DNA from: Candidatus Altiarchaeota archaeon
Lineage (GTDB): Archaea; Altiarchaeota; Altiarchaeia; IMC4; SCGC-AAA252-I15
Direction of reading: 5' to 3'
DNA length: 64,000 nucleotides
Assembly (NCBI GenBank): GCA_043813075.1
Contig: JBDRLL010000003.1
Coordinates: forward strand, 125,811 to 189,810
The position numbers were made by a program, and so were the translations under genes. The notes beneath the pieces were generated by a model, which was not told the DNA's origin, made no database searches, and saw nothing but the letters and a program-made list of their open reading frames with translations. Shown piece after piece: positions 7,594-15,908 of this stretch (its first letter is position 1; the number at the start of each line of letters is the position of its first letter).

Positions 7594-8103
7594 ATGCCGA
7601 TATACGCTGTTAAAGCAACCGCAGGACAGGAGCGCGTAGTAGCCGAACTAGTGTACCGGGAGGCGGTTAACAGGAGGGAGGAGATACTGCGCGAGGGAGG
7701 GGAGATATACAGCATACTCTACACCACAGGACTCAAGGGATACGTGCTTGTTGAAGCAAGCGGCCCCGGTGTTGTGGAAGACCTTGCCAGGAACGTGCCG
7801 AAAACGCGTGGACTTCTATTGAAGGAGAAGGGGAACCTGGATTCTGCTGGAGTAATACCTATCAGCGACTTGGAGAACACGCTATCCCCGAAGCCGATAG
7901 TGAACGACGTGTCCAGGGGAGACTTGATAGAGCTTATCGCAGGACCATTCAAGGGGGAGAAGGCTAGGATAGCCAGGATAGACGAGGACAAGAACGAGAT
8001 AACAGTCGAGCTGATAGAGGCTGCAGTACCCATACCCGTCGTAGTTAGCGGTGAGGACATAAAGGTCATCAGGAAAGAGGAGGATGGAGAGGAGAATGGA
8101 TGA
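7594..8103 (+). CDS. spt5: Transcription elongation factor Spt5 (NusG)
   Basis: NGN-like N-terminus IYAVKATAGQERVVA and KOW motif GDLIELIAGPFKGEKARI, in secE-spt5-rpl11 synteny. Confidence 0.9.
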   Translation: MPIYAVKATAGQERVVAELVYREAVNRREEILREGGEIYSILYTTGLKGYVLVEASGPGVVEDLARNVPKTRGLLLKEKGNLDSAGVIPISDLENTLSPKPIVNDVSRGDLIELIAGPFKGEKARIARIDEDKNEITVELIEAAVPIPVVVSGEDIKVIRKEEDGEENG

Positions 8104-8773
8104 GAGCATCAGCATACTTGTAGACGGTGGTTCAGCGACCGCGGGACCGCCATTGGGCCCCGCATTAGGTCCGCTTGGTGTTAACGCGCAGAAGGTTGTT
8201 GAAGAGATAAACAAGCAGACGAAGGACTACAAGGGGATGAAGATCCCAGTAGACGTTATAGTCGACACAAGCACGAAGGAATTCAGGATAAAGATAGGGA
8301 CCCCACCCACATCAGCGCTCATACTGAAGGCTATTGGATTGGAGAAGGGCGGCGGTAAAAACGAGTTTGTGGGCGACATCGGATTCCTGCAGCTTTTAGA
8401 TATCGCCAAGAAGAAGTCGGATTCAATGCTATCCATAGAACTTAGTTCAGCCATAAAAGAGGCTGCTGGAGCATGCCAGAGCCTGAAGATAACGATATCC
8501 GGGAGAAAACCCAAGCAATTGATAAAGGAGATAAACGAGGGAGTCTTCGACGCCGTGATGGCAGGGAAGAGCACGGAGATACCGGAGGCAAAGATAGTAG
8601 AGGAAAAGAAGGTAAAGATTATAGGCGTCAAGATAGAGGAGGAGGAAAAGCCGGTTGAGGAGGAGAAAACCGAAAAACCAGGTGAAAAGCCACTAAAATC
8701 AGGTGAAAAACCCGGAAAACCCGGTGAAAAACCCTCCAAATCAGGTGAAAAACCTTCAGACGGCAAGAAGTAG
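8084..8773 (+). CDS. rpl11: Ribosomal protein uL11 with a ~65-70 aa Lys/Glu/Pro-rich C-terminal extension
   Basis: GGSATAGPPLGPALGPLGVN core. The start is ATG 8084 or 8096. The canonical L11 ends near EINEGVFDAVM, and the rest is a low-complexity tail. Confidence 0.9.
   Translation: MERRMDESISILVDGGSATAGPPLGPALGPLGVNAQKVVEEINKQTKDYKGMKIPVDVIVDTSTKEFRIKIGTPPTSALILKAIGLEKGGGKNEFVGDIGFLQLLDIAKKKSDSMLSIELSSAIKEAAGACQSLKITISGRKPKQLIKEINEGVFDAVMAGKSTEIPEAKIVEEKKVKIIGVKIEEEEKPVEEEKTEKPGEKPLKSGEKPGKPGEKPSKSGEKPSDGKK
8681..8764 (+). repeat. Four in-frame 21-nt tandem repeats (ggtgaaaaRcc...) encoding GEKPLKS/GEKPGKP/GEKPSKS/GEKPSDG
   Basis: ggtgaaaa starts at 8681, 8702, 8723 and 8744, an exact 21-nt period, inside the rpl11 3' end. 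Confidence 0.85.
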
Positions 8774-8847: not shown

Positions 8848-9477
8848 ATGAATAAAGAGAACATAATAGCGAAAATAAAGGAATGCATCGAGAAATCACC
8901 TAAACGCAAGTTCAAGCAGAATATAGACTTGACTCTTAACTTCTCAGACGTCCAGATGGAGGGTGAACACAAGCTTAACCTGAACATCCTACTGCCCAAG
9001 GGACGTGGCAAGGACGTTGAGATAGGGGTCTTTGCCGACGGAGACATGAACCTCAAGGCGAAGGAAGTGTCAAAACACGTGTTAGACAAGAAGGAGCTTG
9101 AGGGCATGGCTAGCGACAAGCGCGGTATGCGAAAGTACGCTGGTGAATGCTATGGCTTCATAGCGTCATCAGACCTTCTGCCAGTCGTCGGTAAGAACTG
9201 GGGTGTCGTCCTCGGGGTTAGGGGTAAGATGCCACAGCCTGTGCCTCCGAACGCGGACGTTAAGGCCGCCATTGAAAGATCCAAGAACACTGTGAGGATA
9301 AAATCGAAGAAAAACCCTAACATACACGTTCCCGTGGGGACTGAGGATAACAGTCCTGAGGAGCTGTTCGAGAACATACAGGCAGTATACATTTCTGTCG
9401 AGCGTGTGATACATGAGGAGAAGATAAAGTCCGCGTTCATTAAGACAACAATGGGTTCGGCGGTGAGGTTATGGTAG
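8848..9477 (+). CDS. rpl1: Ribosomal protein uL1
   Basis: KRKFKQNIDLTLNF...LPKGRGK...FIASSDLLPVVGK..LGVRGKMP is typical L1. It shares an ATGGTAG overlap with the next gene. Confidence 0.9.
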   Translation: MNKENIIAKIKECIEKSPKRKFKQNIDLTLNFSDVQMEGEHKLNLNILLPKGRGKDVEIGVFADGDMNLKAKEVSKHVLDKKELEGMASDKRGMRKYAGECYGFIASSDLLPVVGKNWGVVLGVRGKMPQPVPPNADVKAAIERSKNTVRIKSKKNPNIHVPVGTEDNSPEELFENIQAVYISVERVIHEEKIKSAFIKTTMGSAVRLW

Positions 9478-10430
9478 CCACATGGAAGAAAGACCTGGCT
9501 AAGGAGATTACTAAGGGAGTTAAGGCAGCTAAGACCATAGGCGTAGTCAAGATTGATAACATACCGTCGAAACAGATGCAGCAGATGAGGAAGACCCTGA
9601 GGGGCAAGGCAAATCTGGTAATAGCGAAGAGGAACGTTTTGAAGCAGTCATTCAGCAAGGCAAACCTTGAGGGGTTGAGTGAATACCTTGATGGTTCTGT
9701 CGGATTACTCTCCAGCGACCTTGACCCATTCCAGCTGGAAAAGCTAGTCTACAGCTGCAGGACAAACGCCCCGGCAAAAGCCGGCGCAACGGCACCATGC
9801 GATATTATAGTGCCTGCAGGCGACACTGGACTGCCGGCAGGTCCGGTGATAGGTGACATACAGGGTGCTGGCATAAAGGCGAAGATACAAGGGGGTAAGA
9901 TAATAGTACAGCAAGAGTCTGTGGTGGTGAAGGAGGGGGACCCCATAAGCGAGGAGGTCGCGACCGCCTTGATGAGGCTCAAGATACAGCCCATGAACAT
10001 CGGCCTGGATTTGAAGGCTGTTTGGAACGATAATGTGGTCTATCCCTACGAAGTCTTGCACATAGAGGAGGCTGAGACCATCAGCAGGCTACAGTCAGCT
10101 CATGTTAAAGCATTCAACCTCGCATTCAATGCTGGATTATTCATGCCAGACACGGTTAGGTTATTCATACAAGAGGCGTTCTGCAACGCCAGGAACCTGG
10201 CCATAAACGCTGAAGTGATAAACAAGGATACCGTCGACTACTTCATAGGCAGGGCAGACGCTCAGGCAAAGGCCTTGAAGAGCGTCCTGCCTGATGATAT
10301 CAAGCCGGCTGAAGAACCTGTGAAGGAGGAGGCAAAGCCTGAAGAGGTTAAAGAGACGCCTGCAGAAGAGAAGAAGGAGACCCCTAGTGAGGATAATAAG
10401 GGGGAGGCTCCTGCTGAGGGGAAGGTATAG
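9471..10430 (+). CDS. rpl10: Ribosomal stalk protein uL10 (acidic protein P0)
   Basis: It has an N-terminal rRNA-binding domain (KQMQQMRKTLRGKANLVIAKRNV) and an archaeal insertion domain. It also has a helical spine region and a charged PAEEPVKEEAKPEE tail. Confidence 0.9.
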   Translation: MVATWKKDLAKEITKGVKAAKTIGVVKIDNIPSKQMQQMRKTLRGKANLVIAKRNVLKQSFSKANLEGLSEYLDGSVGLLSSDLDPFQLEKLVYSCRTNAPAKAGATAPCDIIVPAGDTGLPAGPVIGDIQGAGIKAKIQGGKIIVQQESVVVKEGDPISEEVATALMRLKIQPMNIGLDLKAVWNDNVVYPYEVLHIEEAETISRLQSAHVKAFNLAFNAGLFMPDTVRLFIQEAFCNARNLAINAEVINKDTVDYFIGRADAQAKALKSVLPDDIKPAEEPVKEEAKPEEVKETPAEEKKETPSEDNKGEAPAEGKV

Positions 10431-14831: not shown

Positions 14832-15908
14832 ATGGACTTGAGGGAGAAGATAAAGGCTATTGAGGAGGAGATAGAGAAGACCCCATACAACAAGGCCACC
14901 CAGCACCACATAGGGAAGCTTAAGGCGAAGCTTGCTAAGATGAGGGAGAAGGAGTTCAAGGCCTCTTCAAAGAAAGGTAGTGGCGTCGGCTTCGGGGTGA
15001 GGAAGACCGGGCACGCTACCGCAGTCCTTATAGGCCTCCCTTCAGTGGGCAAGTCCACCCTGTTGAACAAGCTGACTAACGCCGAGTCGGAGGTTGCAGG
15101 CTATGACTTCACCACACTGGATGTGATACCCGGGATGCTACAGCACGAGAGCCTTAACGTGCAGATACTCGACCTGCCGGGGATAATAACGGGGGCGGCC
15201 ATAGGGAAGGGGAGGGGTAGGGAAGTCCTGTCGATGGTGAGGAACGCTGACCTGGTGATAATAATGCTGGACGCTGGTAGGACGAGCGTTTTGCATGAGA
15301 TAAAAGACGAGTTGTATGACATAGGAGTCCGGCTGGACTCGAAGCCTCCTGAAGTATCGGTTAAAAAGAAGATAAGAGGCGGGGTCTCGCTGACTTCGAC
15401 CGTTAAGCTCAGGCGGATAGATGTTGAGGAAGTTAGGGCTGTGCTGAACGAGTATGGCGTACATAACGCTGACGTGGTGATAAGGGAGGACATGACAATC
15501 GACCAGTTCATAGATGCCGTGGCAGGGAACAGGGTTTACGTCCCGTCCCTAGTGCTCGTCAACAAGATAGACAAGGGAGGGGTGAAGAACCTGGATTTCG
15601 AGCATCTGCCCATATCAGCGGAGAAGGAGGTCGGAATCGAGGGGGTTAAGGACGCTATCGTTTCAAAGATAGATGTCATAAGGGTTTTCCTGAAGCCGCA
15701 GGGAGGGGAGGCTGACATGAACGATCCGCTGATACTGAAGAATGGATCTAGCATAAAAGACCTGTGCGAGAAACTCCACAAAGACTTCCTCAAAGGCTTC
15801 AGATATGCCCTGATATGGGGGGAATCCGCGAAACACCCCGGCCAACACGTGGGCTTGAAGCACGTATTAAAAGATAAGGACGTAGTAACAATAATAAAAA
15901 GTGGTTGA
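14832..15908 (+). CDS. DRG/Obg-family GTPase with C-terminal TGS domain
   Basis: G1 GLPSVGKSTLLNKLT, G3 DLPG, G4 NKID, and a C-terminal TGS-like ..GSSIKDLCEKLHKDF... Confidence 0.9.
   Translation: MDLREKIKAIEEEIEKTPYNKATQHHIGKLKAKLAKMREKEFKASSKKGSGVGFGVRKTGHATAVLIGLPSVGKSTLLNKLTNAESEVAGYDFTTLDVIPGMLQHESLNVQILDLPGIITGAAIGKGRGREVLSMVRNADLVIIMLDAGRTSVLHEIKDELYDIGVRLDSKPPEVSVKKKIRGGVSLTSTVKLRRIDVEEVRAVLNEYGVHNADVVIREDMTIDQFIDAVAGNRVYVPSLVLVNKIDKGGVKNLDFEHLPISAEKEVGIEGVKDAIVSKIDVIRVFLKPQGGEADMNDPLILKNGSSIKDLCEKLHKDFLKGFRYALIWGESAKHPGQHVGLKHVLKDKDVVTIIKSG

Follow-up and report, generated by a model that had tools for sequence, protein, structure and literature searches.

The gene for ribosomal protein uL11 (rpl11), on the forward strand of a 64,000-nucleotide (nt) stretch of a Candidatus Altiarchaeota archaeon genome (assembly GCA_043813075.1, contig JBDRLL010000003.1, positions 125,811 to 189,810; hereafter the window, in whose numbering positions are given), encodes an ordinary single-copy uL11 that almost certainly carries a genuine, lineage-typical C-terminal extension. 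The distal part of this extension is a GEKPxKx repeat peculiar to the species, an ordinary low-complexity expansion, and the tail as a whole probably serves as a disordered tether; a probability of about 60% is given to this overall reading. The source genome (G000) comprises 1.80 Mb in 41 contigs and is approximately 89% complete, and the source names attached to the closest homologues of its uL11 agree with a placement in Altiarchaeota. The uL11 protein is located at the GTPase-associated centre, a functional site that ranks among the most conserved in the ribosome. To our knowledge, the solved archaeal, bacterial, and eukaryotic uL11 structures all end shortly past the RNA-binding domain.

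The uL11 gene (8084..8773, + strand), delimited from the list of open reading frames (ORFs), Pfam, and its match in the PDB, encodes 229 amino acids (aa), or 225 aa from an alternative start at a second in-frame ATG (8096). Pfam recognized only Ribosomal_L11_N (PF03946; residues 9-67, E 4.6e-24, 84.4 bits against a cut-off of 32.9) and Ribosomal_L11 (PF00298; residues 73-136, E 1.2e-12, 48.5 bits against a cut-off of 21.4). Both the N-terminal domain with its GPPLGP loop, here AGPPLGPALGPLG, and the RNA-binding C-terminal domain were found, and the gene, with one match in the genome, lies in the conserved Spt5-L11-L1-P0 neighbourhood. Comparisons with canonical archaeal uL11 (M. jannaschii 5col/5d8h, P. 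furiosus 4v6u, and H. marismortui 1s72) showed the same two domains, the same short C-terminal helix, and the same operon context, with end-to-end matches over query residues 7-162 (E 1e-49 to 2e-34), the best being M. jannaschii L11 (E 1e-49). The canonical body was assigned to residues 1-160 (8084..8563, + strand), where the predicted local distance difference test score (pLDDT) of the AlphaFold model exceeds 90; it comprises the two domains just named and the short C-terminal helix of archaea and eukaryotes. The initial annotation had taken archaeal L11 to be normally about 160 aa long and to be followed here by a long charged tail beyond the canonical fold, and both statements hold: the solved proteins measure 161 (5col), 164 (4v6u), and 162 aa (1s72), their alignments stop at query residues 157-162, and the protein encoded here runs approximately 67 residues further (163-229).

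Related genomes carry comparable extensions. In a survey of 61 Altiarchaeota genomes, 56 of them with a complete uL11 gene, tails of 57-110 residues were found on 26 of the 56, comprising 13 of 20 genes in the family of the source genome, 2 of 2 in family f3, 1 of 1 in f4, 3 of 20 in f5, and 7 of 7 in f9. Among the best 120 homologues, 44 are at least 175 aa long and bear charged tails. The same-genus genome G001, whose uL11 is 64% identical, and ten further genomes of the family retain the frame and a proximal module over the first 25 or so tail residues, (Y/V)I(S/A)GK(T/S)xxxPxLVH(K/H)EE(K)xVK(I/L)(V/L)G. The uL11 described here, which reads GKSTEIPEAKIVEEKKVKIIGV ... GKK, has this extension type, and the motif G[KE][ST]xxxP...VK[IL][VL]G occurs in 34 of the 65 long tails of the Altiarchaeota set. 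The search for the same tail in relatives, as proposed in the initial annotation, was therefore positive, with a distal repeat that differs between them: the same-genus genome has AKEGE three times, unlike GEKPxKx, other close relatives have GEKA or GEKKPE, and the nearest metagenomic protein (69% identical) carries GEKAGEKAGEAGEKP. In other families the proximal piece is also of another kind, such as the amphipathic helix-like ...KTEMSEEKKKLMAEEL... of family f9 or the E/R-rich helix of family f3. The tails nevertheless follow a common plan, with a structured or helical proximal piece, a low-complexity spacer of E, K, A, and P, and a Lys-rich tip.

Several properties of these tails are hard to reconcile with chance. 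Over 171 homologues, tail length is bimodal, with at most 20 or at least 46 residues and nothing between. At least two Lys/Arg residues occupy the last four positions in 61 of the 65 long tails, phylogenetically non-independent counts, against 14.4 expected when each tail is shuffled and a baseline of 17.5% of all ORFs of the source genome. Averaged over the long tails, net charge is negative in the middle quarters and positive in the last. The bimodal length, the conserved module, the Lys-rich tip, and the charge pattern argue against accidental read-through and against a frameshift artefact. An apparent read-through match to the tail in genome G046 proved to be the L1 gene in another frame. 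As a separate observation, in the locus L067 (G039:C66:2100-5500) the last ten uL11 codons, NEGKFDEKFR, are duplicated approximately 40 codons downstream in the same frame as NEGKFDEKFK plus a stop; the duplicate precedes the L1 gene and has the appearance of a displaced 3' gene end.

Comparable tails were also found beyond the Altiarchaeota. A query restricted to the core (uL11 residues 5-160) was searched against 1.84 billion representatives of 50%-identity clusters, giving 67 full-core matches, approximately 30 of which have E/K/A/P-rich tails of 40-130 residues. Source names are available for three of the tailed clusters and read Nanoarchaeota or Candidatus Nanoarchaeia, and one contig of these clusters belongs to genome G061. 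A sample of 151 genomes was drawn evenly from the phylum of G061; among the 147 with an uncut uL11 gene, approximately 123 (~84%) have a uL11 open frame of at least 212 aa, so that a C-terminally extended uL11 is the norm in this sampled Nanoarchaeota phylum. The tail is lacking in the solved model archaea and in the uL11 of approximately 160 aa from Bathyarchaeia and Methanospirillum. The earlier view of the tail as unusual for archaeal L11 could thus not be maintained, as such tails are common in two phyla. In the literature on uL11 and ribosomal-protein tails in Altiarchaeota and DPANN archaea, no description of such tails was found, and no structure of a DPANN-type ribosome turned up in the literature searched.

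The extension in the window has three parts, all encoded on the + strand: a conserved proximal module of approximately 25 residues, an acidic spacer, and a basic distal part that is rich in Pro, Gly, and Lys and closes with Lys-Lys. The proximal module (residues 161-184, GKSTEIPEAKIVEEKKVKIIGVKI; 8564..8635) was delimited by its motif in relatives and by AlphaFold, and the low-complexity spacer (residues 185-199, EEEEKPVEEEKTEKP; 8636..8680), read from the sequence, is predicted to be disordered. The distal part consists of four 21-nt tandem units (residues 200-227; 8681..8764), delimited with Tandem Repeats Finder, a unit table, and codon usage, and of the terminal Lys-Lys with a TAG stop, visible in the sequence (8765..8773). 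The units begin at 8681, 8702, 8723, and 8744 and translate exactly as first described, into GEKPLKS, GEKPGKP, GEKPSKS, and GEKPSDG. Their description as exact-period heptads stands for the 21-nt period only. Nucleotide identity among the units is just 12-16 of 21, each of them opening with GGTGAAAA(G/A)CC; a degenerate fifth unit, EEKTEKP at 8660, precedes the four as a proto-repeat inside the acidic spacer; and they are not coiled-coil heptads, an assignment ruled out by a Gly and a Pro in each GEKPxKx unit, a single Leu in all four units, and no hydrophobic a-d periodicity. AlphaFold also shows no secondary structure across the units (pLDDT ~40).

The repeat has the features of a slippage-type coding tandem repeat, as its units are arranged head to tail, in frame, and with a shared codon choice. 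Tandem Repeats Finder reported an array at 8666-8754 with a period of 21 (4.3 copies, score 95), and a 42-nt superperiod scores higher (2.1 copies, 85% matches, score 127). The Glu and Gly codons of the repeat are GAA (4), GAG (0), and GGT (4), whereas the remainder of the uL11 gene is GAG-rich, which points to the amplification of one seed. One 21-nt, and later 42-nt, seed would have expanded into the four units through replication slippage or unequal recombination within the low-complexity part, and we consider this origin of the repeat likely. Judging from the sequences compared, constraint in the low-complexity part appears to act on composition, length, and the Lys-rich tip, and not on the exact sequence. 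The tail was found nowhere else in the genome, either as DNA or as peptide, and a mobile or gene-converted module common to other ribosomal-protein tails was ruled out by this uniqueness of the tail DNA. The K/E/A-rich terminal extensions of eukaryotic ribosomal proteins are likewise charged, of low complexity, repeat-prone, and found mainly on ribosomal proteins; neither inter-gene copying nor a palindromic mobile repeat was seen here. Another assembly of the same species was also sought in metagenome and genome contigs, and none was found; an exact 33-mer across units 2 and 3 was unmatched, and a 20-mer from the uL11 core gave 88 matches, which blastn showed to be unrelated to the gene described here.

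An AlphaFold2 run on a 56-sequence alignment placed the end of predicted secondary structure at residue 159, with pLDDT falling from above 90 in the core to 88 at residues 161-170, 58 at 171-180, and below 50 at 181-222. The distal tail is accordingly predicted to be disordered, and the proximal module may, on this model, fold only on a partner. Counted from the sequence, the net charge is roughly -4 over residues 163-198 and roughly +5 over residues 199-229; the first half of the tail is slightly acidic and its last quarter is the most basic (+0.17 per residue). The tail could therefore be pictured as an intrinsically disordered, flexible, dipolar tether projecting from the stalk base, whose basic Lys-rich tip would make transient electrostatic contacts with ribosomal RNA (rRNA) or with the very acidic hinges and tails of P0 and P1. 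Such contacts would modulate the dynamic behaviour of the GTPase-associated centre. This tether function is offered tentatively, with somewhat less than even odds. A precedent is found in eukaryotes, where the flexible N-terminal MPPKFDP motif of uL11 contacts the P-complex/uL10 and aids translation (Yang et al. 2022, PMC9122527). That motif, too, extends one end of uL11 at the stalk base, is unstructured, and is specific to a lineage, although it lies at the opposite terminus and has 7 conserved residues with a reach of approximately 25 angstroms, whereas the putative tether described here has approximately 67 residues, mostly of low complexity.

The likeness to a stalk hinge proposed in the initial annotation is partial. 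The hinge and tail of aP1/aP0 (PF00428) form a flexible A/E/K/P-rich segment at the GTPase-associated centre, and the uL11 tail is also predicted to be flexible and lies at the stalk base. However, the C-terminus of aP1/aP0 is a hydrophobic ...GLxxLFG peptide to which aEF1A, aEF2, and further factors bind (PMC4267659, PMC5887453, PMC7768734), while the uL11 tail here ends ...SDGKK, and the protein has no PF00428 match at E <=0.01. An origin of the tail as a P1-like fusion was likewise ruled out by the lack of this match and by an intact P1 elsewhere in the genome. The uL11 tail of one relative (G035:C8:1044-1268; L048), with GEES repeated four times, gave a weak PF00428 match (E 2.7e-4), in which its low-complexity sequence probably just resembles the acidic hinge.

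Some observations weigh against a shared tether function. The tail types differ: the module is strand-like in the family of the source genome, family f9 and Nanoarchaeota have an amphipathic helix instead, and one genus of f5 has low-complexity sequence alone. With such differences between families, a single common function is not established. In addition, the Altiarchaeota tree requires at least 8 changes in tail state and the Nanoarchaeota tree at least 7, and this repeated gain and loss marks the tail as dispensable; the phylogenetic non-independence of the Lys-rich tip counts also lowers their weight. The repeated gain and loss also speaks for the main competing explanation, in which the tail is an effectively neutral or weakly selected low-complexity appendage: the solvent-pointing C-terminus of uL11 would gather slippage-prone DNA coding for K, E, and P with no role in translation. 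The lack of conservation of the distal sequence, even within the genus, fits this explanation, as does the absence of tails from many close relatives, for instance G005, which sits inside a tailed clade. Past the stop codons of tail-less relatives, no tail remnants were found. A neutral appendage is nevertheless not expected to leave a gap at 21-45 residues in the length distribution, to conserve a proximal module, to keep a Lys-rich tip in position far above the shuffled expectation, or to persist in most of a phylum-wide Nanoarchaeota sample.

The rest of the proteome bears on neutrality in both directions. A scan of 2717 ORFs of at least 100 aa for a charged, hydrophobic-poor 45-residue C-terminus returned four, all of them large-subunit ribosomal proteins: uL11, P0, eL34, and eL24. 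The eL34 (166 aa; G000:C8 from base 15499, + strand) and eL24 (114 aa; G000:C9 from 22589, + strand) proteins have Lys-rich extensions past Pfam domains restricted to residues 4-81 and 2-60, respectively. A second scan, using the last 30 residues and other thresholds, added three proteins named by eye: uS17 (131 aa; G000:C31, - strand), with a long Lys-rich C-terminal extension, and, both named from their N-terminal sequences, an Rpo7-like RNA polymerase subunit (200 aa; G000:C10 from base 68972, + strand) and V-type ATPase subunit A (638 aa; G000:C41, - strand), each with a K/E/P-rich tail of low complexity. Charged tails are thus no general property of the proteome, and ribosomal proteins make up nearly all of them. 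That further ribosomal proteins of this genome bear similar tails is compatible with a neutral origin, but the rarity of such tails elsewhere in the proteome is not what this origin would predict. On balance, neutrality is rather unlikely, although it competes better than any other alternative, and the reading as a lineage-typical tail with a probable tether role is preferred.

A second alternative couples the tail functionally to the loss of the factor-binding peptide of P0, for which it would compensate or with whose altered stalk it would cooperate. The P0/uL10 gene (9471..10430, + strand) matched only the L10 and RL10P_insert families of Pfam, with PF00428 unmatched, and its E/K/P-rich tail, which closes with ...GEAPAEGKV, lacks the conserved C-terminal ...GLxxLFG peptide; the early description of the P0 tail as atypical was thus correct. 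The accompanying claim that P1 is missing was not, as the sole PF00428 match in the genome is a P1 stalk gene on contig C22 (G000:C22:6997-7254; L001 1441-1764), which encodes 107 aa ending ASGLASLFG, with the canonical ...GLASLFG end. Among the matches listed for the order of the source genome, P1 lies apart from the L11-L1-P0 cluster; within the class, it follows P0 only in family f9. The P0 peptide is lacking in 21 of 34 complete Altiarchaeota P0 proteins, and LFG is lacking in 47 of 61 P0 proteins of the Nanoarchaeota sample. Among the relatives compared (loci L032-L086), the P0 proteins without the peptide vary in form, some having long E/K/P tails (up to 426 aa) and others being tail-less (275-285 aa). 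Many of the LFG-less Nanoarchaeota P0 proteins end in another conserved motif, such as ...AADLLRQLTDKKIRGEI, ...AQELLKKLQDEKIKKG, or ...LTQELIKKGTLRK (loci L220, L224-L227, L230, L232, L233, and L237), which may serve in its place as a C-terminal peptide for interactions.

In raw counts, the two features occur together. Among 33 Altiarchaeota genomes, the P0 peptide was lost in 16 and kept in 2 of those with a uL11 tail, and lost in 4 and kept in 11 of those without (Fisher p = 4e-4, on raw counts). In the Nanoarchaeota sample, it was lacking in 34 of 37 tailed and 13 of 24 tail-less genomes. Separate cases of the pair are families f1, f4, and f9, genus g23 of f5, and Nanoarchaeota. However, once ancestry is considered, this association depends on very few independent events. 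The Altiarchaeota tree, built from the uL11 core, uL1, and the P0 core, contains one independent pair if only supported branches are counted and four if all branches are; with one independent pair per phylum on well-supported branches, the sign test gives p = 1. The Nanoarchaeota tree shows just 3 changes in peptide state and 7 in tail state; one clade contains 10 of the 11 Nanoarchaeota genomes with the peptide but no tail, and 6 of approximately 8 tail-less lineages lack the peptide as well. Family f3 combines the tail with an intact P0 peptide, P1 keeps its canonical end, and the uL11 tail offers Lys-Lys in place of a hydrophobic peptide or a PF00428 domain. The uL11 tail and the P0 peptide loss are therefore both common in the two phyla, with too few tree-based events to link them. 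Of the remodelled stalk suggested in the initial annotation, the P0 peptide loss and the raw co-occurrence stand, P1 is present, independent pairs are too scarce to show a link, and a functional coupling is considered improbable.

Two further explanations can be treated briefly. In eukaryotes, rRNA expansion segments are often paired with basic protein tails, and by analogy the uL11 tail could bind a lineage-specific rRNA expansion near H42-H44. The 23S rRNA of the source genome has 2873 nt against 2987 consensus positions, and its H42-H44 region fits positions 1089-1492 of the archaeal model RF02540 with 365.8 bits and no insertions. The rRNA partner site of uL11 is thus canonical at the level of sequence, the tail is not accompanied by an expansion at the uL11 binding site, and this explanation is very improbable. 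Least credible of all is an artefact of frameshift, misassembly, or a mis-called stop, for despite a repeat region prone to slippage, homologous tails occur in the same frame in more than 60 independent assemblies, relatives at 50-70% identity retain the uL11 frame through the tail and the 25-residue module, this conserved module begins directly after the core, and the tail is open in the uL11 frame only, with five stops in the +1 frame; the frameshift check proposed earlier thus revealed no artefact.

The genes surrounding uL11, typed by Pfam, are arranged in the order FtsZ-SecE-Spt5-uL11-uL1-P0. The upstream Spt5/NusG gene (7594..8103, + strand), with Spt5-NGN and KOW domains, overlaps the start of uL11, and the uL1 gene (8848..9477, + strand; Ribosomal_L1, E 5.9e-41) lies downstream.

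The breadth of the uL11 tails and of the P0 peptide loss in DPANN-type archaea is of more interest than the GEKPxKx repeat itself. An extension of 50-110 residues at one of the most conserved sites of the ribosome is widespread in uncultured archaea, being present in approximately 84% of the Nanoarchaeota sample and in nearly half of the sampled Altiarchaeota, and most of the examined P0 proteins of both phyla have lost the factor-binding peptide. A more speculative proposal, to which we give little chance, is that the uL11 tail and its Lys-rich tip are a working part of a re-engineered GTPase-associated centre, common to DPANN-type archaea (Altiarchaeota and Nanoarchaeota); in lineages whose P0 lost this peptide, they would organise the acidic P1 tails or help to capture the factor-tRNA complex. 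If true, this would be a third solution for factor recruitment, besides bacterial bL12 and the archaeal and eukaryotic P0-P1 tails. The uL11 tails represent a concrete and testable target for ribosome structural biology.

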